Made by a program: the position numbers and the translations under genes. A model generated the notes under the pieces. The model worked only from the letters and a program-made list of their open reading frames with translations. It did not search any database and was not told the DNA's origin. Shown piece by piece: positions 36,760 through 59,378 of a stretch of 64,000 nt of DNA; position 1 is the stretch's first letter, and each line of letters starts with the position of its first letter. This stretch comes from an uncultured Acidobacteriaceae bacterium (lineage in GTDB: Bacteria; Acidobacteriota; Terriglobia; Terriglobales; Acidobacteriaceae): assembly GCA_963702775.1 (NCBI GenBank), contig CAVPDX010000001.1, forward strand, positions 115,688-179,687, given 5' to 3'.

Positions 36760-37396
36760 CGGACCTTGGCCTTTGCTCCAGAAAGAAATAGTTGGAGCAC
36801 GTGTGCTGGAACTTCTGTGGCCTCCGGATCCGGATGAAAAAAATTTACAGATCGAATCCGCTTAACTCTTTGGAATGAGCAACTTGCAGACTTCGATCTG
36901 CCGTCGATCCGGCTAAAATATTGAATCGAAGGAACTTATTCGCAAAATCTTGGATTGATTGGACTTACGTGGCCTATTCGGTTGTCAAAGAGCGGATAAA
37001 GATTTGGGTTGATTATCGGACGAAGCGGAAGGGCGGCACAAGGGCAGATGTCACAAGGTGTGGCTGTGGATATCTTTGGTTGATCCATGCGGGCGGGAAA
37101 ATATGCATGGGCAGAGCCGCCGCCGGTCGATGGGTCGGTTTCCGAGTAGTTGACCAACGGTCTAGGAAGAGTCGATTCGGGTTGTGAGTGTAATCGCGAT
37201 TTTTCGCCAACCATCATGCTGAGATACATGTAACCGCAAATGCTTCAGCCTGTGCCGCGAAGACCAAAAAAAACCCTGTGTCTCAACACGTTGCAACTGC
37301 GCGACCTGGACGTCGGAATTGGTCAGGCTAAGGCCTGCCGGTCGAGCCGTTGTAGACGATGCTGTAGTTCAACAGCAGATCGCCTGGCAGTCACGT

Positions 37397-38842
37397 TCAC
37401 GGGCGCGCAGGAATGACGACTGGACGACGAGTATTCCGTGATCCGGGAGGGTCATTCAGAACCCAGGAGGCATGGCCGAACGCGTAGAGGTTTTCAGTTG
37501 ATGCGACATATAGGACTCCATCCGCCACGGCGGGCGAGGCATACACCCCAATGCCGGTGTTGAAGCTCCACAGTTTCGCACCCGTACTGGCATTAAGGGC
37601 ATACACGTTGAAGTCGGAGGAGCCAACGTACACCACCCCGTTCGCCACCGCGGGCGAGGACGAGGATTCCACACCGCCGCCGGTCGAGAAGCTCCAGAGT
37701 TTCGCACCCGTACTGGCGTTCAAGGCATACACGTTGTTATCGTAGGAGTTAACATACGCCACGCCATTCGCTACAGCGGGCGAGGCGGCCAAGGCCCCGC
37801 CGGTCGTGAAGCTCCAGAGTTTCGCACCCGTACTGGCGTTCAAGGCATACATGCTGCCGTTTATGGAGTTTACATACACCGCGCCATTCGCCACGGCGGG
37901 CGCGGAGATAAAGTAGCCGTTGTAGCTGCCGGGTGTGAAGCTCCAGAGTTTCGCGCCCGTACTGGCGTTCAAGGCATACACGTTGTTATCGGTGGAGTTA
38001 ACATACACCACGCCATTTGCCACGGCGGGCGCGGACCAGATGTACGAGCCGGTTGTAAAACTCCACAGCTTGGCGCCCGTACTGGCGTTCAGGGCATACA
38101 TGCTGTAGTCGTCGGAGCCAATATATACAACGCCATTCACCACGACGGGCGAGGCGTACACTACGTCGCCGGTCGTGAAGCTCCACAGTTCCGCACCCGT
38201 ACTGGCGTTCAAGGCATACACGTTGTGGTCATCGCAGCCAAAATATACAGCGCCGTTCGCCACAGCGGGCGAGGAGGACACTCCGTTGCTGTTGCCAGTC
38301 GTGAAGCTCCACAGTTCCGCGCCCGTGCTGGCATTCAGGGCATACACCCCGTTGAAGTAGTAAATCGAGCCAACATATACGACTCCATTCACTATTGCGG
38401 GCGAGGAGCTCCCGGTGTCAAGCCTGGCGTTCCAACGAGGAAGGAGGGAGGCGACCCTCGAAGGATTCAGCATATTCTCGTAGGGATTATTCCGGGTGTT
38501 GTCGGGCGTGAAGCCGAATTCCACCCAGTTGGTTTGCACCAAGAAAACGGCCTTCGCGTCGCCGCTGTCGGTCGCGAGCTGCACCACGCTCACCCAATGA
38601 TCTCCCGGCACAGCTGAGGAGGGAACCTGAATGGCAACATTAGAAAACGAACCTGAGCCGTCGGCAAGGGCCGAGGCTTCAAAGGTGGTATCGAAGTAGA
38701 TGTCAATCGAGGCGTAAGTGGAAAAGCCGCTGCCCGAGACGAGGACGTTGGTGGTGGGTGGGCCCACCGCAGGCCCCAGTTGGACCGCGGGCTGGCCAAA
38801 GCAGAAGCTCGCAAGCATCAATACCGCGATTATGGATTTCAC
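37397..38842 (-). CDS. PQQ-like beta-propeller repeat protein with N-terminal Ig/IPT-like domain
   Basis: At least 8 repeats of ...VYALNASTGA[KE]LWSFTTG... plus a signal peptide. Confidence 0.85.
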   Translation of the reverse strand: MKSIIAVLMLASFCFGQPAVQLGPAVGPPTTNVLVSGSGFSTYASIDIYFDTTFEASALADGSGSFSNVAIQVPSSAVPGDHWVSVVQLATDSGDAKAVFLVQTNWVEFGFTPDNTRNNPYENMLNPSRVASLLPRWNARLDTGSSSPAIVNGVVYVGSIYYFNGVYALNASTGAELWSFTTGNSNGVSSSPAVANGAVYFGCDDHNVYALNASTGAELWSFTTGDVVYASPVVVNGVVYIGSDDYSMYALNASTGAKLWSFTTGSYIWSAPAVANGVVYVNSTDNNVYALNASTGAKLWSFTPGSYNGYFISAPAVANGAVYVNSINGSMYALNASTGAKLWSFTTGGALAASPAVANGVAYVNSYDNNVYALNASTGAKLWSFSTGGGVESSSSPAVANGVVYVGSSDFNVYALNASTGAKLWSFNTGIGVYASPAVADGVLYVASTENLYAFGHASWVLNDPPGSRNTRRPVVIPARP

Positions 38843-39151
38843 GATGGTGCCTCCCGCATTCGACGAATTAGTGAATCAAAGAAAAAAGCCGACTTACCAG
38901 CGGCGGCTTTACGCAGCCACCTGCGGTAACTCGGCTGTCTTTAAGTCCACTCAGGGGGCCCGTCGAACTTCTTAAAGACCCGTGGCTTTCCGTCGCTCGC
39001 TACACGCGAGGTTTGGTCTTGAAAAGTCCTTGCCCCGTCAGGCTACGGTGACAATCACTCATTGTCAGTGACTCATATCACGGTTCAGGGTGATCGCAAC
39101 GAAATCGTAAAGCCCCGTGGGAGATATCTAAGTGTCGAGAACAGGCCTCTC

Positions 39152-40522
39152 TGACAATGTGGATCCCTGTCAAACACTTTTTGAGCGTACTGCTCCGTGC
39201 ACTCCGAAGAGCGCGCCATTTCGCTCTAGTTGAAGGTTTCTGCCATACCAACCAAAAGCTCGCTCGTAATCGTTTCAGGTCAGAAGCTCAGTTCGACCCA
39301 TGCATCTCTTCGGTCACAACTTCGATCATGATTACTACTTCGAACTCCTCCGTGAAGGAGGAGCGGGCTGCCCAATCAATAGCTCGATGTTCTACTGCAC
39401 ACCACGGCCTGTTCCGAGCGTGGCCGCGTGCGAATCGAACTTTTTCACTCGCTCGTAATCCCATCCCTTGTGCCACATCCAGTGCAAACGAATCGCGAGT
39501 CTCCGCGCCATCGCCACCTTGGCGATCTTCCGCCCCCGGCGCATCACCAAGTGGAAATACTTGCTGCGCCATTCCGGAAGCCTGCGAACTGTGACCTGGG
39601 CCGCTTCCACCAGCAAGAAGCGCAATATCGAACTCCCCGGTTTGGTGATATGCCCCAGTCGCCGCCGATTTCCGCTGGAATCTTCCAGCGGCACCAGTCC
39701 GAGATAGCTCGCCACCTGCTTCCCACACTGAAAGCGCTTCGCATCTCCGATGATCAACACGAAAGCCAGTGCGGTCAGCGGACCCACTCCAGGATGGGTC
39801 ATCAACCATCGTGCCTCGGGAAGCTTCTCGGCCTCTTGCTCAATCGCCTGACTCAGTTCCGCAATCGTCGGATTCAGCCGATCCAGCAACTCCAGCAGAT
39901 CGCGCCGGCGTCGGCTCGCCCAGGGAGCTAACCGGATCGACTCCAGTTGTTCCCGTCCGTGCTCCCGCCATAACCTCTTTTTGCAACGTAGCCCTTCGTT
40001 CAGGGCTACGGCTTGCAACTGATTCAGAATGCGGGTGCGCGCCTGCACCATGCGGTGGCGGTGCCACAGCAGTTGCCGCAGATCGCGATTCTCCCAGCTC
40101 GCTACCCAGATCCGCGGAAAATCATCCTTCAGCAGCAAGCGCAGAATGTGCTGTGCATCCTGGCGATCCGTCTTCTGCTTGCGTTCGCGCTTCCTGGCGA
40201 TTTCGGTGGCGTCCCCGATCCACACCTCGAAGTTCAGTTCGCCCAGGAGTCGCTCGAACCAGCGCGCATGCTCACTGGCTTCCATCCCCACACGCACTTT
40301 CATTCCCTGTACCCCAAGACCACGGTAGAACTTCTCTGCTTCCTCGCGGTGCTCAAGGCGCCGTTCCTGTAATTCCCCTGTGTCCGTATCGACAAACGCA
40401 ATTTGCTGAAAGCTCGGGTGGTAATCGCATCCTATAATCAACATATCGGCTCCTTTTCTCCCGAGCCTTTTGGTTGGTTAGCACCACCAAGTTTACTCGG
40501 GGCGTGGGAGCCAACATTGTCA
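39152..40522 (-). mobile_element. IS110/IS1111-family insertion sequence (boundaries approximate)
   Basis: TGACAATGTGGATCCC (39152-39167) matches the reverse complement of GGGAGCCAACATTGTCA (40506-40522) at 15/16 positions with 1 gap. The repeats enclose the transposase gene. Confidence 0.6.
39392..40444 (-). CDS. IS110-family transposase
   Basis: MLIIGCDYHPS... (DEDD N-terminal domain) and ...THPGVGPLTALAFVLIIGDAKRF..GKQVASYLGLVP (Transposase_20-like). Confidence 0.92.
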   Translation of the reverse strand: MLIIGCDYHPSFQQIAFVDTDTGELQERRLEHREEAEKFYRGLGVQGMKVRVGMEASEHARWFERLLGELNFEVWIGDATEIARKRERKQKTDRQDAQHILRLLLKDDFPRIWVASWENRDLRQLLWHRHRMVQARTRILNQLQAVALNEGLRCKKRLWREHGREQLESIRLAPWASRRRRDLLELLDRLNPTIAELSQAIEQEAEKLPEARWLMTHPGVGPLTALAFVLIIGDAKRFQCGKQVASYLGLVPLEDSSGNRRRLGHITKPGSSILRFLLVEAAQVTVRRLPEWRSKYFHLVMRRGRKIAKVAMARRLAIRLHWMWHKGWDYERVKKFDSHAATLGTGRGVQ

Positions 40523-40640
40523 TGGAATCAATAGCGCTCGCAACCAGAGCTTGGATTCCTGGGAGTTGACGAGCAAAAGTCGGAGCCCCTACCCGCCGAG
40601 GAACGTACCAACTTTGGCCGTGCGCGAACTCAGCCGTCGC

Positions 40641-41825
40641 TCACAGGGACAGCGCGACTTCTCTCGCGGCCTCTGTGCCCCTAACTGCACTAGCCGAGGC
40701 TCCCAGGCTGGATAATCTGCTCCCGGTGATCGCCGGCACAAGCTGAATCTGCACCAACCGCGCAGGCGCAGCATTCGACTTCTTCGCCAGCAAATTAGCC
40801 GAAGGAATGCCGGTGCGGGCAAACGATTTCTCGCAGTCCGCGGTGGAAGGACCGCGCATATTCCCCTCCATGAACGCCAGCCCGGGACAGCGAGTGCAAG
40901 TCGAGCCATGAGCGCACTGCGAGCAACTGGATAAATCGCGCAACCGAATTGAACGAACTTCTTTCAGTTGTTCGGAGTTGCGCCAGATGTCAATGAAGCG
41001 CTGCTGCCGCACGTTCCCGCAGGACAAGGGAAACTGCACGCAAGGGTAAAACTCTCCGTAGGGAGAAACGTAGCAGGCGGTATGGCCTGCGCTGCAAGGC
41101 AGGGACTGCATGCTGCTCTCATCGGGCGCGGGCGGCAGCGCACAGAACTCTTCGGCGCTGCCAACAAAAGACTCGTCCCGGAACAAGGTGTGCAGCGCGG
41201 ACTCACCCGCGTTCAAGTCGAGGATGGAGCGGTCGCCATCCATCTTCGGCGTGATCGTCGGATCCAGCGTGTAACGGGCATCGACTTCTTCCGCCAACGC
41301 GCGAACGCCGTGATAATCCTGCATATTCTGGGTCATCATCACATTGCCGACGACTACCTTGAGGCCCTGCGCCCGGAGAAAGCGGATGGCGTTGATCGAC
41401 CGGCGCAGCGAGCCGGGAAGCTTGGTGATGGCATCATGAACTTCCGGCCGGTGGGAATAAATGCTGACCTGAACCGACTCCACGCCGAGATCGCGCAGGC
41501 GCGCCGCCTGGGCTTCGCGAATGAGCACGGCATTGGTCTTGAGCTTGATGCAGAAGGTGAGATCGCGCGCGTATTCCAGAATCTCGAAAAAATCCTTGCG
41601 CAAGAAGATCTCGCCGCCGCTGAGCGTAAGAATAAAGACCCCGGCTTCAGCCATCTCCTTGAGCAAGTGCTTGATCTCAACCGTGGTCATCTCGCCGTGA
41701 TCGTCGTGATCGAGGTAGCAGTGAATGCACTTTTCGTTGCAGCGGTAGGTGAGATCAAGCTGCACGCTGAAGGGAACGCCCAAGCGCAGAGCCCGTTCAC
41801 TCATTTCCTGCATCAAGGCGCTCAT
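40641..41825 (-). CDS. radical SAM/SPASM-domain peptide-maturase-like protein
   Basis: LDLTYRCNEKCIHCYL (CX3CX2C) and a C-terminal Cys cluster CSAGHTACYVSPYGEFYPC...CSQCAHGSTCTRCPG. The ATG overlaps the PqqD stop (ATGA). Confidence 0.88.
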   Translation of the reverse strand: MSALMQEMSERALRLGVPFSVQLDLTYRCNEKCIHCYLDHDDHGEMTTVEIKHLLKEMAEAGVFILTLSGGEIFLRKDFFEILEYARDLTFCIKLKTNAVLIREAQAARLRDLGVESVQVSIYSHRPEVHDAITKLPGSLRRSINAIRFLRAQGLKVVVGNVMMTQNMQDYHGVRALAEEVDARYTLDPTITPKMDGDRSILDLNAGESALHTLFRDESFVGSAEEFCALPPAPDESSMQSLPCSAGHTACYVSPYGEFYPCVQFPLSCGNVRQQRFIDIWRNSEQLKEVRSIRLRDLSSCSQCAHGSTCTRCPGLAFMEGNMRGPSTADCEKSFARTGIPSANLLAKKSNAAPARLVQIQLVPAITGSRLSSLGASASAVRGTEAAREVALSL

Positions 41826-42163
41826 CTTTTTTGTTCTAACCCCTGTTCTAATTTCTGCACAGACGTAACCGGCTTCGGAATCGGTTGCTCGGAAATCAGC
41901 AGAATGCCATGCCTGGCCAAATCTTCGGCCAGCGCCTCGGCATCGCGCATCGCTTCCTCGGGCTTCACGTCGAACTCGGAGCAGATGCGGCGCTCCACGA
42001 TCTCATCCAACGGAGTAGCCCCGTCGGCGGCCTGCCAGAGAATGGTTGCGGTGGGGTTCAGCGTAAACAGCGTCGAACCCTGACCCGACATGACCAGCAT
42101 TTCTTCACCCAGCATGCGGGCTGCGATCCGCGGACTGCGCGCCACGTAGAGTGTCTTAGTCAT
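41822..42163 (-). CDS. PqqD-family peptide chaperone (RRE)
   Basis: MTKTLYVARSPRIAARMLGEEMLVMS...LFTLNPTATILWQAADGATPLDEIVERRICSEFDV.PEEAMRDAEALAEDLARHGIL. The ATG at 42163 overlaps the upstream stop (TAATG). Confidence 0.85.
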   Translation of the reverse strand: MTKTLYVARSPRIAARMLGEEMLVMSGQGSTLFTLNPTATILWQAADGATPLDEIVERRICSEFDVKPEEAMRDAEALAEDLARHGILLISEQPIPKPVTSVQKLEQGLEQKR

Positions 42164-43080
42164 TATCCAATCATCTCCCAGACGCGCGCATCCGGCACAA
42201 AAGTCAGCCGGTACACGGGCACGCAATCGACGAAGTCGCACGCCGCCTGAAACGCCGAGCACACCAACTCCTCGTCCTCGGCAAAGAAAAGCATATTGGC
42301 CAGCAGTTCGCGCCCGGCATCGGCTGTGGTCACGGGGTCGATGCGATTCTCCAAGCCTTTCGCCAGCAGGTAAAGCGCGGCCACCGGCGCAGACGTGTTC
42401 TCGCCCAGTTTGGCCAGTTCCCCGGTGAAGGGAGTGCCAAACGCAACATAACCCTCGCTGTGCTGAGGCACGTTCTCCTGAGAGACGTGCTTCTGAGAAA
42501 CGCTGGTGGAACCGTTGCGCTTGCGGACGTAGGAAATCTCATCCGTCAGAAGCGTAGCGTCGGCGGGTGCAAACCGCGAAATCGTAGTCTTCCCCGCTCC
42601 TGAAACTCCGGCAAACAAAAAGGCCTTGCCATTGCGTATGGCGCTGGCGGAGTGCAATAGAAATCCACCCTGCCGGGCTAGGAGCAGCGTATGCGTAATG
42701 CGCAGAACGGCGTCGATCGAATAGGGATTCAGCGACTGCTGAATCCACCCGCGGCGCGCCGCGGGATCCCATTCGGCGCGGAAATCTCCCCGTTCCATCC
42801 GCCAGCGGCCAGAGCGGTGGGTCACGCGCACATCCGCATCCGGATCGGCCAATGCAGGCCGTCTCAACTCCACGTCGAACTCGAACTCCGCATCGGCCAC
42901 GGCGCTTACAAATCCGGCGTAGCGTTCTTCCAGCAGCGCGAGAAAACCCGCATCGTCCGTGTTTACGCGGACGGCCACGCCGCCAATCGCAATCACAACG
43001 CTGCAGCGGTCGACTTGTGCGGCTAGCCCTGGCACGGATGAATCGATTCCCTTGGACCCCATACCCCACGAACCAGACAA
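42163..43080 (-). CDS. HPr-kinase-like P-loop protein
   Basis: GFLLHSASAIRNGKAFLFAGVSGAGKTTISR...LLTDEISYV. The true start is probably nearer 43035 (GTG), overlapping the end of the peptidase frame. Confidence 0.8.
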   Translation of the reverse strand: MSGSWGMGSKGIDSSVPGLAAQVDRCSVVIAIGGVAVRVNTDDAGFLALLEERYAGFVSAVADAEFEFDVELRRPALADPDADVRVTHRSGRWRMERGDFRAEWDPAARRGWIQQSLNPYSIDAVLRITHTLLLARQGGFLLHSASAIRNGKAFLFAGVSGAGKTTISRFAPADATLLTDEISYVRKRNGSTSVSQKHVSQENVPQHSEGYVAFGTPFTGELAKLGENTSAPVAALYLLAKGLENRIDPVTTADAGRELLANMLFFAEDEELVCSAFQAACDFVDCVPVYRLTFVPDARVWEMIG

Positions 43081-43531
43081 TGAAAGTAAACGAGGGCGCG
43101 TGCCGCAAGAAACGAGCGCCGAACAATCTTTGCTATCATTTTCGCGAGCACAGTCAACTCCGCGGGCACTGCGACGCGCTCACCCGCCAGGATGAAGTAC
43201 GCGATGCGGCCAAGCAACTCATTCGCGGCCACCGGAGGATCTGGAACGGGCAGCGCATCGCCTTGCGTAATCCAGCGTGGATTCTGAGAATCACCCGCAG
43301 TACCCACGACGCGATGAGCACAGGCCCGCCTTCGCGCCCTACCAGCACTAAGTCGCCGATGCGGACTTGATCGGGCGCGACTCGCTCAACCAGCAGCGTT
43401 TCGCCGGGCCAAACAGAAGGCAGCATGCTCCAGCCCGTCGCGGCGAAACGAAGCTTGCCGAATGAGCACAGAACGTCCGCCGCCAGTTCGCATTTCAGAG
43501 CGTGGGCGTCGGCAGGCGCCGGCGAACTCAT
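43023..43531 (-). pseudogene. S24/S26-family serine peptidase, interrupted by one frame change near 43310-43335
   Basis: The N-terminal part runs from ATG 43531 (GWSMLPSVWPGETLLVERV...GDLVLVGREGG). The C-terminal part, in the neighbouring frame, reads AHRVVGTAGDSQNPRWITQGDALPVPDPPV..ELLGRI. Confidence 0.7.
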
Positions 43532-43644
43532 GACACCTTCGTATTCAGTGCGCAGCCGCTTTGACTGGGGCTGATCTTGCCGCAAGTAAGCGCCGTGGTC
43601 ACGAAGACCTCTTCGCAGCGAAAGGACGGCTTCTCGTAACGCAT
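43528..43644 (-). CDS. candidate RiPP precursor peptide, 38 aa (alternative start 43698 gives 56 aa)
   Basis: Hand translation gives MRYEKPSFRCEEVFVTTALTCGKISPSQSGCALNTKVS. GC3 is 28/38 here versus 20/38 in the overlapping long frame. The TGA overlaps the peptidase ATG. The leader motif is YxxPx[LF]. Confidence 0.55.
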   Translation of the reverse strand: MRYEKPSFRCEEVFVTTALTCGKISPSQSGCALNTKVS

Positions 43645-43977
43645 TTTCTCGGTTGCCGCAGGACGCGGTTCTTGGTTCGATGAGTGATTCAATCCCATAA
43701 TGATCGTTCCCCACTATCGTAAGGCCGATTGCAGCGCCGCATCGCGCACCCGGACTCTGGTCTGTTGTTGGAAACCCATCATACACCCCTGAGTTTTGAG
43801 GAAACCCGCAAAATTTAGATGCGCAAGAAAGATTTCCACAGACATTTCCACTCCCCTTGCAACCAATAAAAGCCCGTCATGGGTTTCGTCCGCGTATTAG
43901 TATAGGAGGACGTTTGTTCCGAGCCTCCGCACAGTATCAGGCAAACAAGTGTCGGGCAAAGAAGCGAGAGGAGAGAA

Positions 43978-46396: not shown

Positions 46397-47096
46397 CTCC
46401 AAGAAACCTAGGGCCAGTCGCATCCCGGCGCTGGAAGTCGAACTTACGAAGAGCCCAGACGGCAAGCTGCGTTCGTTCCGCGTCTCCATCGGCACAGCGG
46501 CCGTCATGGTGCTTTTGATGTGTCTTAGAGGGGGAGCTAGCGACAGCTGGCTCCCTGCGTTGAAATGGATCGTCGCAATAGTGCGCTGAATTGGCTGGAC
46601 CGAGCGCAGCAGTTGCCGACAGGCACGCTCCGACGCGCAGCTGCGCTTTAAAGCCATCCAGAATTCAAGCCCTGCATCTCACGAAGGACCCGTGGCACTA
46701 ACGACGAGAGTTTCTTGGCAGTGAAACGCATTTCATGCCGGAAGATCATCAAATCCAGGAACACCAGGACAACATCAGGAACATCATCGACAGCAACAGT
46801 ATCGGCGGTGGGGCAGAGTTAATTCGTGCAAGAAGAGGAACGACGAGCAGCAGTGAGGAGAAGGATGAGCAGCAGGAGGATGATGAAGAGGAGAATGAGC
46901 AGGATGATGATGGTGACGATGATGAGGAGCAGGAGGAGAATGAGCCACCGATGAGCGGCAGCTATCTAGGAAGAATGCGGACAATCCGCCTCCGCCGGCA
47001 CCACCGCCGGCGCCGCCACCGCCACCACCACCGCCACCACCACCGCCAACTGGCCGCCGCCCGGTCGCCGGCCCCAAAGCCCAGGATGCAGACTTA

Positions 47097-48428
47097 TCAG
47101 TGCTGTGTTAGTCCCTCCGATTCCGGTTCGTTGAGCAACTTGAGTCGTCGCTTGATGCCTTGCTGGATCGAAGTTGCCACTGATTCAGGAAATCCCGTTG
47201 GTAGGTCGGACACGACTGAGTCAACTACCGCCGATGCAGAGTCCCGCAGTTCTTCGAAGATGCCTCTAACCACGCTTCCCCCAACACCCGCTTTCTCGGC
47301 CGTTTGGAAAAAATGGCGCGGAGCAATATTCATGATTTTGTAATGGCGCTTGGAACCGACTGCCATAGCTAAGCGGAACTGTTTCCAGAGTATCTGTTTT
47401 ACATCAACGCTTGGTTGAGCTGAGATTACGTCATAGAACGGAGTCAGGCGGAATCGCCCACCGGATGACAGAAAGACGCTGAAATTCTTCGCATGTCCGT
47501 CCGTGGCTCCGAGCAACCAATAGATGATATTAGCTTTCAAGAACGATCGCTGATCCGCAATAGGTTCGTCGCTTCCTCGTAGTAGTTGAAGTATTTTCTC
47601 AATGCCTGGTCCACCATCGCTCTCGTACTTAAGATTCGGAGAAACGGAGAGTGCTTGGCAGCAGTCCTCTTGGGGAAGGCGCAGCAGCCTCTTGTCAGCG
47701 GTCCATAGCCTGTCGAATCGTTCGACAACGAGGACTCGTTTGTCTCCGAAGGATGACATTTCGGCGTTTGCCGCGGCAAGGTCCAATCCTTTTACAATCT
47801 TCAGACAGAGATATTCGTTTTCTACGCTATAAGTTAGATCTATTCCGTTTGGAAGGCGACCGACCGAAGGTTTTAAGATATGGGTTGTAGCTGTAGTACC
47901 GCGGGGCTTGTACCATTCTCCGTTCAAGAGGAGGAGTGCCGTTTTCTCCTGTGCACCGGCAATGGAGATGCGGAAGCTTTCGTCCTCTGTAATCCCGAGT
48001 GGAGCGGTCGCTAAATTGTCTAGTATTTCTGTAATTTCGCGCTCGTTAACCGGAACACCGTCCACAGCTCCAGGTGGGCCTGGCTGCGAGTCCCGCGGTA
48101 GGAACTGAAGGGCGCCGACACAATCGTGACCAATCGCTCCGAGAAGGCTGTATGCATCCGTTCCTTCAGCGCGCGCGCGCGCAGCGATTCGTCGCCGAAG
48201 GGATTCGTTGTCGGGCAAGAGGTTCTCAAAGACCGCAATTACGGGCGCGCCGGTGTACTCTTGCTCACGTATCGGGAGAGAGAGCGAAACGGGGATGGCT
48301 GGCGGCCATGCGATCCAAGAATGATCGTATTGGAAAGAGATTGCCCCTGAGATTTCACGACGCAGTTCGCCGACGAGGCGGCTGTTTAGAAATGTGCTCA
48401 CCGGTTCATAGCGCGCGCGTCGAGGCAT
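47097..48428 (-). CDS. hipA: type II toxin HipA-family kinase
   Basis: N-terminal coupling domain, ISIAGAQEKTALLL and GATDGHAKNFSVFL. The start overlaps the hipB stop (TAATG). Confidence 0.9.
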   Translation of the reverse strand: MPRRARYEPVSTFLNSRLVGELRREISGAISFQYDHSWIAWPPAIPVSLSLPIREQEYTGAPVIAVFENLLPDNESLRRRIAARARAEGTDAYSLLGAIGHDCVGALQFLPRDSQPGPPGAVDGVPVNEREITEILDNLATAPLGITEDESFRISIAGAQEKTALLLLNGEWYKPRGTTATTHILKPSVGRLPNGIDLTYSVENEYLCLKIVKGLDLAAANAEMSSFGDKRVLVVERFDRLWTADKRLLRLPQEDCCQALSVSPNLKYESDGGPGIEKILQLLRGSDEPIADQRSFLKANIIYWLLGATDGHAKNFSVFLSSGGRFRLTPFYDVISAQPSVDVKQILWKQFRLAMAVGSKRHYKIMNIAPRHFFQTAEKAGVGGSVVRGIFEELRDSASAVVDSVVSDLPTGFPESVATSIQQGIKRRLKLLNEPESEGLTQH

Positions 48429-48676
48429 TAAAATAGCGCCTCAATGTCTTTCGCTGATGTTTTGGTTCTGGGTCGAATAACCATTTCGAGATCGAGTGCG
48501 GCAAGCGCCGAAAGCAGTGTGGCTGTTCGCATTGTTGCCAATGTTTCCAAAGCGGAGACTGTGGACTGCCGAAGCCTAATTCGCGAGGCTAGCTCTGCTT
48601 GCGTTAGCCCAAGTTCAGTACGTCTTTGTCGAAGTAGATTGCCGAGTTGTTTAGGTGTGCGGGCGACTTGTTCCAT
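48428..48676 (-). CDS. hipB: HipB-like XRE-family antitoxin
   Basis: LGNLLRQRRTELGLTQAELASRIRLRQSTVSALE (HTH_3). Confidence 0.85.
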   Translation of the reverse strand: MEQVARTPKQLGNLLRQRRTELGLTQAELASRIRLRQSTVSALETLATMRTATLLSALAALDLEMVIRPRTKTSAKDIEALF

Positions 48677-54838: not shown

Positions 54839-54936
54839 TGGCGGAAGCGAGTGGGGGTCGAACCCACCGGTGACAGGAAGACCTGCCGCCCGCCGGTTTT
54901 GAAGACCGGGACGATCACCGGACCGCATGCGCTTCC
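54839..54936 (-). tRNA. selC: tRNA-Sec (anticodon UCA), CCA encoded
   Basis: GGAAGCGCAUGCGGUCCGGUGAUCGUCCCGGUCUUCAAAACCGG...GUGGGUUCGACCCCCACUCGCUUCCGCCA. It has a 6-bp D-stem with a 4-nt loop and a long variable arm, and its overall layout parallels E. coli selC. Confidence 0.85.
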
Positions 54937-58702: not shown

Positions 58703-58777
<75 letters not shown>

Positions 58778-58806
58778 TTTCTCTTCCGGCCCACTCAGGA
58801 GATTCC

Positions 58807-59202
58807 ATGAGACCCTGGCCAGCTTGTCTTCTCGGCATCATCCTCGCAATATCAATTGTGCTGCTGGCCTGCGGCGGCAGCAATCATCCGCTTCAGTCCG
58901 TCGCCGTAACTCCCGCGGCCGCCAGCGCTTCCCAGGCCCAGTTCACCGCCACGGGCGCTTACAACACCATGCCCACTACGGCCGACATCACCAGCACGAC
59001 AACTTGGTGTATTGGCTCAAGCAGCGGTCTGTGTTCAGCCGACGTGGCTCCGATCGCAGAGGTCACGGCCGGATTGGCCCAATGCGCCGCTGGCCGTTCG
59101 GGAACCGTAACCGTCCTCGCGGGACAACCCAGCAACCACCCCGGCGTGAATCAGGGATATCAGTTGCAGCCCTTCGGCGCAGCCCAGCTAACCTGCCCGT
59201 AA
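58807..59202 (+). CDS. small secreted lipoprotein
   Basis: ATG at 58807. The track ORF 58717 starts inside the tRNA. Lipobox VLLACGG. 131 aa. Confidence 0.65.
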   Translation: MRPWPACLLGIILAISIVLLACGGSNHPLQSVAVTPAAASASQAQFTATGAYNTMPTTADITSTTTWCIGSSSGLCSADVAPIAEVTAGLAQCAAGRSGTVTVLAGQPSNHPGVNQGYQLQPFGAAQLTCP

Positions 59203-59303
59203 AATGCGGCTACGGCGTAGCTTCGCGCCGCAGAGAATCGCTTCAGTGGAATCAAAATGTCGGTTGGACTTTTCTCCCTCAAAACGCTAACTTAATCTCT
59301 AGG

Positions 59304-59378
59304 GGCGCGGTACCCAAGTGGTAAGGGAGAGGTCTGCAAAACCTTTATGCGTCGGTTCGATTCCGACCCGCGCCTCCA
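59304..59378 (+). tRNA. tRNA-Cys (GCA), CCA encoded
   Basis: GGCGCGG...AGGTCTGCAAAACCT...GGTTCGATTCC...CCGCGCCTCCA. Confidence 0.88.

Follow-up and report, generated by a model that had tools for sequence, protein, structure and literature searches.

The closest described relatives of the system considered here are found among RiPPs, peptides that are ribosomally synthesised and then modified post-translationally. Linear polyphosphorylated peptide (LPP) clusters of Bacillota (Popov et al., Nat Commun 2026, PMC13381572) consist of a signal peptidase I (SpI)-like leader peptidase, a discrete RiPP recognition element (RRE) LppB, an HprK-like kinase LppK, the NTP_transf_5 protein LppN and an MsbA-like pump. 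The LPP leader carries the motif YxxPxVLxHQxIxFETxxS; cleavage after T-1 was shown to depend on the RRE, core Ser3 was shown to become poly-phosphorylated, and LppK was found experimentally to phosphorylate Ser (PMC13381572). The same study states that LPPs are restricted to Bacillota, and the words 'radical' and 'SPASM' are absent from its main text and supplements. Kinase-associated lasso peptide precursors accept phosphate on a C-terminal Ser that is strictly conserved, and in lasso and LPP systems alike the phospho-Ser is decorated by NTP_transf_5 proteins, the family of LppN and PsmN (review, PMC9266682). The SynChlorMet cassette is defined bioinformatically by the NCBIfam/TIGRFAMs models TIGR04248 ScmD, TIGR04249 ScmC, TIGR04250 ScmE and TIGR04251 ScmF; we found no experimental paper on it. 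Here we describe a five-gene operon from an uncultured Acidobacteriaceae bacterium (assembly GCA_963702775.1, contig CAVPDX010000001.1, positions 115,688 to 179,687), the 64,000-nucleotide stretch of which is referred to as the window. We consider it likely, with a probability of roughly 0.7, that this is a RiPP operon of an uncharacterised type, in which an LPP/lasso-style recognition, kinase and leader-peptidase module is combined with a radical S-adenosylmethionine (SAM)/SPASM maturase.

Five minus-strand open reading frames (ORFs) are tightly packed between positions 40641 and 43698 of the window, and the ORF listing places all of them at the coordinates given in an earlier note on this DNA. 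The first encodes a 56-residue precursor peptide (43528-43698 including the stop codon; sequence MGLNHSSNQEPRPAATEKMRYEKPSFRCEEVFVTTALTCGKISPSQSGCALNTKVS). It is followed by the gene for a SpI-like (S26B, LppS-like) leader peptidase (43023-43531), disrupted in the window and recognised from intact homologues and profiles, and by a ScmC-family P-loop kinase-like gene with the Walker A motif GVSGAGKTT (42163-43062, in an ORF spanning 42163-43080; PF27840). A discrete PqqD-family RRE of 113 residues (41822-42163; PF05402) and a radical SAM/SPASM enzyme of 394 residues, counted from ATG 41825 (40641-41825; PF04055 and PF13186), complete the set.

Reading of the sequence at the gene junctions shows that the precursor TGA (43530-43528) overlaps the peptidase ATG (43531-43529) as ATGA, an overlap of -4 nt that is conserved in 73 of 85 loci. 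The TAA of the ScmC gene (42165-42163) shares one base with the PqqD ATG (42163-42161), giving TAATG (42165-42161), and the PqqD TGA overlaps an in-window radical SAM ATG (41825-41823) as ATGA at 41825-41822. In relatives the radical SAM start lies 8 nt downstream of the PqqD stop (56/85 loci), which corresponds to ATG 41813 of the window and is probably the true start. When frame-corrected, the window peptidase ends at TAG 43025-43023, with a 13-nt overlap with GTG 43035 of the ScmC gene. As the same 13-nt overlap recurs in 60 of 86 loci, the ScmC gene probably begins at this GTG rather than at ATG 43062. A scan for promoters and terminators gave nothing above chance. The ORFs, their junctions and the conserved overlaps thus bear out the translationally coupled RiPP-type operon of five genes proposed in the earlier note, which had also seen the peptidase frame running into the kinase gene but had not recognised the 1-nt frameshift described below.

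We scanned GTDB using one genome per species and found close ScmC relatives in 222 species genomes. The best 80 loci, which derive nearly all from peat and soil Acidobacteriota metagenome-assembled genomes (Ca. Sulfotelmatobacter, Acidobacteriaceae, Acidoferrum, Terriglobales), were examined for synteny by tblastn. The order precursor, peptidase, ScmC, PqqD, radical SAM was found in every one of these loci that is not cut by a contig end. Identity across loci ranges from 68 to 91% for the radical SAM enzyme and from 65 to 94% for PqqD. The five-gene synteny also extends to the distant loci L089 (Binataceae), L091, L092 and L093 (metagenome contigs); distant ScmC relatives are approximately 33-35% identical to the window protein. 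With gene order constant in uncut loci and a small ORF that carries the codon-position signature of a gene, the five-gene set is far beyond chance. The wider ScmC family is large, with >6,300 homologues (90%-identity clusters, word-indexed search), all with PF27840, and 5,452 clusters at 50% identity in an exhaustive search (E <= 1e-3). It includes a branch from Armatimonadetes and others in which ScmC and PqqD occur with an upstream GNAT acetyltransferase and without radical SAM or peptidase genes (L088:6881-11870, L090:6765-11765 and L094:6882-9509); no precursor was identified on these contigs, and in L088 and L090 the pair is followed by VanZ and ABC-2 transporter genes.

A homologous small ORF is located directly upstream of the peptidase gene in every locus where the upstream region is present. 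The nucleotide entropy by codon position in this ORF (0.35/0.26/1.10) indicates that it is coding, and the small ORF of the window is conserved; none of the NCBIfam or Pfam models matched it. The family, represented by 78 distinct precursors, follows the pattern ...EEPRPAAIEKKPYEKPGFRYEQVFVT-[S/T]-A-L-[S/T]-C-G-K-x(6-8)-C-x(5-8)-[A/V]-S-stop. In the numbering of this motif, Y1, P4, R7, F12, V13, A16, C19 and K21 are invariant and F6, T14 and L17 nearly so. Two Cys residues, 8-10 residues apart, are present in 77 of the 78 sequences, and a further 6-9 residues follow the second. Both the inter-Cys loop and the stretch beyond it are variable in sequence and length. The C-terminal residue is Ser in 78/78, no other Ser being invariant. 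In the window, the predicted leader (residues 1-34; 43597-43698, minus strand) has a YxxPxF motif for RRE binding at Y21-F26 and a predicted cleavage signature at F32-V33-T34, and the predicted 22-residue core TALTCGKISPSQSGCALNTKVS (43531-43596, minus strand) contains C39, C49 and the C-terminal Ser56. The core is devoid of Asp and Glu, and no acidic position is conserved across the family. The leader of this family (KKPYEKPxFRxEQVF[V/E]T, the cut being placed after the final T) resembles that of LPPs, and leader cleavage after Thr34 is predicted from the LPP F-x-T signature, by analogy with the precursor LppA, for which a cut after T-1 was shown (PMC13381572). Leaders of the distant loci end in ...(V/I)FET, which matches the end of the LPP leader motif, with cores that open with MAL[S/T]CGK and end in ...K[N/S]S before the stop codon. 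In a single locus (L055:9348-10034) precursor and peptidase form one continuous ORF lacking the intervening stop codon, which could be a natural fusion or a sequencing error.

The PqqD profile PF05402 detects the RRE gene product at 51.7 bits (cut-off 23.4). When a profile of the RRE was compared with solved structures, the best matches were lasso B1 RREs (TbiB1 2.8e-9, 9x90_B 1.5e-7 and TfuB1 1.6e-7), whereas the structure of PqqD itself scored just 5e-4. The NCBIfam lasso_PqqD, ScmD and GeoRSP PqqD models were matched below their cut-offs. A link to paeninodin-type kinase systems, drawn in the earlier note, is therefore apt: the RRE is nearest to lasso B1 and all 78 precursors terminate in Ser.

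The earlier note had described the kinase-like protein as HPr-kinase-like and the peptidase as S24/S26. Among the corresponding profiles, PF05402 and both radical SAM models scored above cut-off and the Pfam S26/S24 match of the peptidase was borderline, but the kinase-like protein did not match Pfam Hpr_kinase_C (PF07475) at E <= 0.1. It is instead assigned to Pfam PF27840 'ScmC' by precomputed annotation, and matches TIGR04249 ScmC (35 bits vs 125) and TIGR04352 HprK_rel_A, both below cut-off. Among 35 diverse family members, TIGR04249 was matched by 35 (best 4.5e-15), TIGR04352 by 31 and TIGR04355 by 26, none above cut-off. The 'HprK kinase' class in the LPP neighbourhood table is made up of the same three models (TIGR04249, 67; TIGR04352, 65; TIGR04355, 11; PMC13381572), which places the window kinase in the same broad family as validated peptide Ser kinases. 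An AlphaFold2 model from a shallow alignment was unusable (predicted local distance difference test, pLDDT, 53.5), and a model based on a diverse alignment (pLDDT 91.3) was used instead. Foldseek matched this model to ATP-dependent phosphoenolpyruvate carboxykinase (PEPCK) over both domains (E 5.6e-9, TM 0.48) and its P-loop domain to HPr kinase/phosphorylase (HprK/P; E ~2e-3, TM ~0.25). Profile searches of the PDB with the ScmC-like protein returned generic P-loop and PEPCK matches only, so that the fold comparison alone was informative. Judged by its modelled fold, the kinase-like protein is a member of the HprK/PEPCK superfamily and not an HprK/P orthologue. Invariant or near-invariant residues comprise His137, Gly152, Ser154, Gly157 and Lys158 of the Walker A motif, and Asp174-Glu175; the His/Lys/Asp-Glu set mirrors the essential His-Lys-Asp-Asp motif of lasso-peptide kinases (PMC9266682). 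As Ser56 is the only invariant Ser of the precursor, and lasso kinases target a C-terminal Ser, this residue is the predicted phospho-site and the best candidate for phosphorylation by the ScmC-type kinase.

The radical SAM enzyme scored 80.8 bits against Radical_SAM PF04055 (cut-off 29.5) and 41.8 bits against SPASM PF13186 (cut-off 21.5). The CX3CX2C motif (C29/C33/C36, CNEKCIHC) is conserved in 71 homologues, as are nine further Cys residues (C228, C244, C251, C262, C301, C304, C310, C313 and C331), which is consistent with two auxiliary clusters. The protein does not contain a fused N-terminal RRE and is thus expected to depend on the discrete PqqD protein. The best NCBIfam matches (AhbD, NirJ2, MftC, TIGR04053, WgkB, ScmE, PqqE, StsB and AlbA) are all far below cut-offs, and a sequence comparison with the PDB ranks SkfB, a sactisynthase, first (6.4e-15). 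An exact-sequence lookup of the window protein gave no match. That this enzyme forms thioether cross-links from the two near-invariant Cys of the precursor is a hypothesis, and our leading guess for its chemistry.

The peptidase is, by profile, clearly of the endoplasmic reticulum/archaeal signal peptidase I-like (S26B) type. Its profile matches human SEC11C/SEC11A (5.6e-8), and of 29 homologues all matched TIGR02228 and 13 the SipW model. Ser35 (GWSMLP), His73-Arg74 (AHRVV) and Gly91-Asp92 are invariant in these 29 sequences. When compared with the published sequences of PMC13381572 (Supplementary Data 1), the peptidase scored 39-73 bits against LppS-type cluster 1 and 32-40 bits against bona fide SipW (cluster 2), and was closest to cluster 3 of the sequence similarity network (SSN) of that study (86-100 bits). 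Cluster 3, unexplored in PMC13381572, comprises proteins from Acidobacteriota, Myxococcota and others, some of them with 'other' RREs.

To define the neighbourhood of the operon, flanking ORFs of 81 loci were clustered. Recurrent neighbours are a resistance-nodulation-division (RND) pump with its membrane fusion protein (MFP) partner, a SET-domain protein, a coiled-coil lipoprotein, CysK, threonine-aldolase-like and PhzF-like proteins, an M48 peptidase, a glycosyltransferase, NTP_transf_5 and a large secreted protein. NTP_transf_5 (PF14907, 203 bits) is located directly downstream of the radical SAM gene in 11 of the 81 loci (L085:12357-13541; L059, L071, L073, L074, L077, L080, L082, L083, L086 and L087), which belong to a divergent clade of Acidobacteriota; the window has no such gene. 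NTP_transf_5 is also found nearby in three of the distant loci (L089:4105-5295, L092:3387-4469 and L093:3845-5011). Apparent fusions of the radical SAM and NTP_transf_5 proteins in L059 and L077 were rejected as artefacts of ORF extension, there being a stop codon between the genes. In 23/81 loci (e.g. L056:12430-13869), the gene directly downstream of, and on the same strand as, the radical SAM gene encodes a membrane M48 (Ste24/HtpX-like) metalloprotease, not found in the window. The secreted protein, of 600-825 residues, is encoded on the same strand and ends directly upstream of the precursor in ~45 of the 81 Acidobacteriota loci and in all four distant radical SAM-type loci (examples are L072:7170-9320, L089:5461-7317, L092:4687-7164 and L093:5493-7346). 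It has a signal peptide, weak similarity to PQQ/BamB-like beta-propellers and the C-terminal motif GGTSGI(I/V)IDNTVG...YFSTL...GCAVQASQS, and could belong to the system as its sixth component; in the window, tblastn revealed no copy. The neighbouring RND pump was considered as an exporter and rejected as unsupported, given its location on the other strand and the lack of such a pump in the distant loci.

The leader YxxP motif, an RRE most similar to lasso B1 proteins, and a kinase accompanied by a C-terminal Ser typical of paeninodin-type systems could all be taken to mean that the locus is a truncated or decayed lasso cluster, which has lost its cyclase (C) and B2 protease and has the radical SAM and peptidase genes as incidental neighbours. 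However, neither the window nor 93 of 94 loci contain an Asn-synthetase-like (PF00733) ORF within ~8-10 kb (SGG.DS scan and tblastn with the L093 protein), and the Pfam tables of the contigs list an Asn_synthase family in L093 only and a transglutaminase in none. In that distant locus an Asn_synthase-only gene (L093:1087-2715) lies 4.4 kb upstream of the operon, beside a PMT_2 glycosyltransferase. The 542-residue protein, with an SGGTDS PP-loop and no glutaminase domain, scored 56.9 and 22 bits against macrolactam-cyclase models, the lower value being for the lasso cyclase model with its cut-off of 525. Nor was a transglutaminase-like B2 (PF13471) found in the Pfam-annotated neighbourhoods, the recurrent neighbour clusters (which contain no cyclase either) or the window ORFs flanking the operon. 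That the operon is independent of a lasso cyclase or B2 protease, as the earlier note held, is supported by these results. In addition, the core has no conserved Asp/Glu acceptor, and the coupled five-gene set is conserved in different phyla. As synteny holds in uncut loci and only one of 94 has an Asn-synthetase-like gene nearby, the locus is not a truncated lasso cluster; that reading is essentially refuted. An assignment as an ordinary LPP member is improbable, though less decisively so. It would have the Cys pair as a disulfide and the radical SAM/SPASM enzyme as responsible for a secondary tailoring step (e.g. epimerisation), or as dispensable for the defining modification. The LPP-like SpI peptidase, discrete RRE, ScmC/HprK-type kinase and YxxP...F-x-T leader, and the NTP_transf_5 gene of some loci, would all fit such an assignment, and some bona fide LPP precursors have two Cys in clusters without any radical SAM enzyme. 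Against this, LPP clusters are free of radical SAM genes and described as Bacillota-restricted, whereas here the radical SAM/SPASM gene is present in every uncut Acidobacteriota locus and the four distant radical SAM-type loci, tightly packed with the others and encoding the most conserved protein of the set. The window-type operon furthermore lacks an MsbA-like exporter, and the FETxxS phospho-site motif is not conserved. Only slightly better placed, and still unlikely, is a product that is a peptide-derived cofactor akin to pyrroloquinoline quinone (PQQ) or mycofactocin, or an intracellular signal, as opposed to a secreted modified peptide. The radical SAM enzyme and discrete PqqD would then work together in the manner of PqqE/PqqD or MftC/MftB, with the C-terminal residue as a possible target, and peptidase and kinase would process the product. 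Consistent with this, the radical SAM enzyme has no fused RRE and counts MftC, PqqE and AhbD among its best family matches, the C-terminal residue of the precursor is invariant as in MftA, and the operon is without transporter or immunity gene. The high conservation of the enzymes (at the identities given above), and a conserved chromosomal context in most Acidobacteriota genomes that suggests vertical inheritance, point in the same direction. The core loops between and after the Cys nevertheless vary in sequence and length, where PqqA and MftA have invariant cores. Moreover, the loci show no consistent linkage to a cofactor-dependent dehydrogenase, the RRE resembles lasso B1 more than PqqD, and the LPP-type parts point to a peptide product.

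A separate concern is the state of the window copy itself. The peptidase gene is an intact ORF of 169 residues in L001, L002 and L003, relatives that are ~98.5% identical to the window, but falls into two fragments in different frames here (43154-43531 and 43023-43307). Alignment to L001 and L002 identifies a 1-nt deletion (T, minus strand) at 43323/43324 as the cause of the frameshift. The deletion is also missing from L003, so that three close relatives, including a short-read Logan assembly, keep the gene intact, and its context (GGGC[T]CTG) is not a simple homopolymer. An IS110-family transposase (PF02371/PF01548; 39392-40444, minus strand), absent from the 98.5%-identical L001, is located 200 nt downstream of the radical SAM gene, in a rearranged region (37211-40530) that differs from L001. 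Together these features could signal decay of a dead locus with a genuinely frameshifted peptidase, which we regard as a serious possibility that nonetheless falls short of an even chance. The IS element lies outside the operon, the remaining four genes are all intact, with 89-100% identity to their L001 counterparts, and sporadic single-base indels of the type expected from assembly error split conserved genes in related long contigs too. L001 itself has such indels in its RND pump gene, and the frameshift is thus indistinguishable here from an assembly error; with its peptidase frameshifted, the window copy may be either non-functional or mis-assembled. The frameshift and the nearby IS110 element count against the reading as a RiPP operon of an uncharacterised type, and so do further observations. 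The radical SAM enzyme could be placed in no functional subfamily, its top models being AhbD, NirJ and MftC and not sacti- or ranthipeptide synthases. As LPP precursors from clusters without a radical SAM gene also carry two Cys, the Cys pair could be a plain disulfide, with the radical SAM enzyme acting elsewhere. The phospho-site of LppK (core Ser3) has no invariant counterpart: core position +3 is Leu, +1 is S/T/M and +4 is S/T/N/G/A, with no invariant Ser close to the predicted cleavage site. Finally, the operon contains no dedicated exporter or immunity gene, and a conserved chromosomal neighbourhood (SET, RND pump, CysK) equally fits a housekeeping or cofactor-like role.

Returning to the reading we prefer, a RiPP operon that combines the LPP/lasso-style module with a radical SAM/SPASM maturase, the following pathway can be proposed. 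The discrete PqqD-type RRE would bind the 56-residue precursor via the leader motif KK-x-Y-x-K-P-x-F, and would present the peptide to the kinase, the radical SAM/SPASM enzyme and the peptidase. The ScmC-type P-loop kinase is predicted to phosphorylate a Ser, Ser56 being favoured, and the radical SAM/SPASM enzyme would install at least one radical-mediated modification in the 22-residue core, most likely as thioether cross-links from the Cys pair. Removal of the leader after F-x-T (Thr34) would be the task of the cytoplasmic SpI-like Ser/His/Asp peptidase, and in the divergent clade NTP_transf_5 probably decorates the phospho-Ser further. The mature peptide would presumably be exported. Of this picture, the gene families, their strict synteny and coupling, the conservation of the precursor and the lack of a lasso cyclase are computational results, whereas the chemical steps, cleavage site, phospho-site and export are deduced from analogous systems. 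More tentatively, and at rather less than even odds, we suggest that the system represents a new RiPP subclass. In this subclass a radical SAM/SPASM cross-linker, a peptide Ser kinase and a signal-peptidase-like leader protease would be brought in by a leader and RRE of the lasso/LPP type, yielding a Cys-cross-linked peptide of ~22 residues with a phosphorylated C-terminus, further glycosylated or nucleotidylated in some lineages. The subclass would be vertically inherited and nearly universal in peatland Ca. Sulfotelmatobacter-like Acidobacteriota.

If true, vertical inheritance and near-universality would imply a physiological role, as opposed to a sporadic antibiotic one. If the RiPP reading is right, the LPP module would extend beyond Bacillota, the orphan SynChlorMet/ScmC family would gain a functional context, and a link would be made between three areas of RiPP research that were so far kept apart: lasso-type leader and RRE, LPP SpI-peptidase and kinase, and radical SAM/SPASM chemistry. 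The hosts are uncultured Acidobacteriota of soil and peat, and hardly any experiments have addressed their secondary metabolism. The abundance of the family, and a compact set of five genes with a clear precursor and predictions, make it a target for heterologous expression.

Elsewhere in the window, a gene for a PQQ-repeat beta-propeller protein (37397-38842), adjacent to the IS110 transposase, is located within the segment without alignment to L001; in L001 the gene is oriented the other way round. A HipA (443 residues)/HipB-like helix-turn-helix (HTH; 82 residues) toxin-antitoxin pair is encoded at 47097-48676 (minus strand), ~3.4 kb upstream of the operon; in L001 a truncated hipA precedes a transposase HTH fragment. 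A low-complexity stretch (46735-47343, plus strand; 46784-47077, minus strand) encodes acidic and His/Arg runs on one strand, with poly-Gly encoded opposite, and contains a 12-nt repeat-unit indel (TGGTGGCGGTGG) at 47027 relative to L001 and L002. The window also contains a tRNA-SeC gene (anticodon TCA; 54839-54936, minus strand), indicating that the organism has selenoprotein capacity, and tRNA-Gly and tRNA-Cys genes at 58703-59378.

A comparison with the known systems reveals which parts of the operon are shared and which are not. In common with LPP clusters, the window family has a discrete PqqD-type RRE and a cytoplasmic archaeal/ER-type SpI-like peptidase, with Ser35/His73/Asp92 matching LppS S29/H68/D93. 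Both also have a P-loop 'HprK' kinase that matches TIGR04249, TIGR04352 or TIGR04355, the comparison here being via shared models, NTP_transf_5 in part of the family, and a leader of similar form (KK-x-Y-x-x-P-x-hydrophobic ... Q10 ... F-x-T) ahead of the core. In contrast to LPPs, the radical SAM/SPASM enzyme is always present, the operon is devoid of an MsbA-like or other ABC exporter, and the spacing of YxxP and F-x-T in the leader is smaller by two residues. In place of a conserved FETxxS phospho-site the precursors have an invariant C-terminal Ser and two near-invariant Cys. The peptidase is nearest to SSN cluster 3 and not to LppS cluster 1, and the hosts are Acidobacteriota and Binatota as opposed to Bacillota. 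Paeninodin-type lasso systems share the YxxP leader and B1-type RRE (TbiB1 and TfuB1 being nearest), an HprK-superfamily kinase with a His/Lys/Asp-acid motif, the strictly conserved C-terminal Ser and the optional NTP_transf_5. They differ in having an Asn-synthetase-like cyclase, B2 and an Asp/Glu acceptor at core positions 7-9, where the window family has a serine peptidase for leader removal and a radical SAM/SPASM enzyme.

As in the SynChlorMet cassette, a protein of the ScmC family occurs together with a homologue of PqqD and a radical SAM/SPASM enzyme resembling PqqE, and the best NCBIfam matches of the window kinase and PqqD are ScmC and ScmD. The scores are nevertheless well below the respective cut-offs (bits/cut-off: ScmC 35/125, ScmD 25.9/100, ScmE 105.5/400 and ScmF 61/400), and the window family has one radical SAM enzyme and not two, in addition to the SpI-like peptidase and an identifiable precursor. 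Sacti- and ranthipeptide systems (SkfB, AlbA, CteB, PapB) are similar in their Cys-containing core and a radical SAM enzyme with the full SPASM Cys set. There, however, the RRE is an N-terminal domain and not a separate protein, the sactisynthase models score weakly (StsB 93 bits vs 625; AlbA 87 vs 850), and both kinase and SpI-like peptidase are foreign to those pathways. A literature search returned nothing on a ScmC or HprK-type kinase with radical SAM in RiPPs, or on the combination of signal peptidase, radical SAM, RRE and kinase. The statement in the earlier note that no characterised RiPP class has this combination thus needs to be narrowed, as four of the parts are found in the LPP family and the trio of ScmC, PqqD and radical SAM in SynChlorMet. 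It stands for their union with the radical SAM enzyme: the undescribed part is the joining of an LPP-type module to a radical SAM/SPASM enzyme, with a Cys-containing, Ser-terminated precursor, in Acidobacteriota and Binatota.

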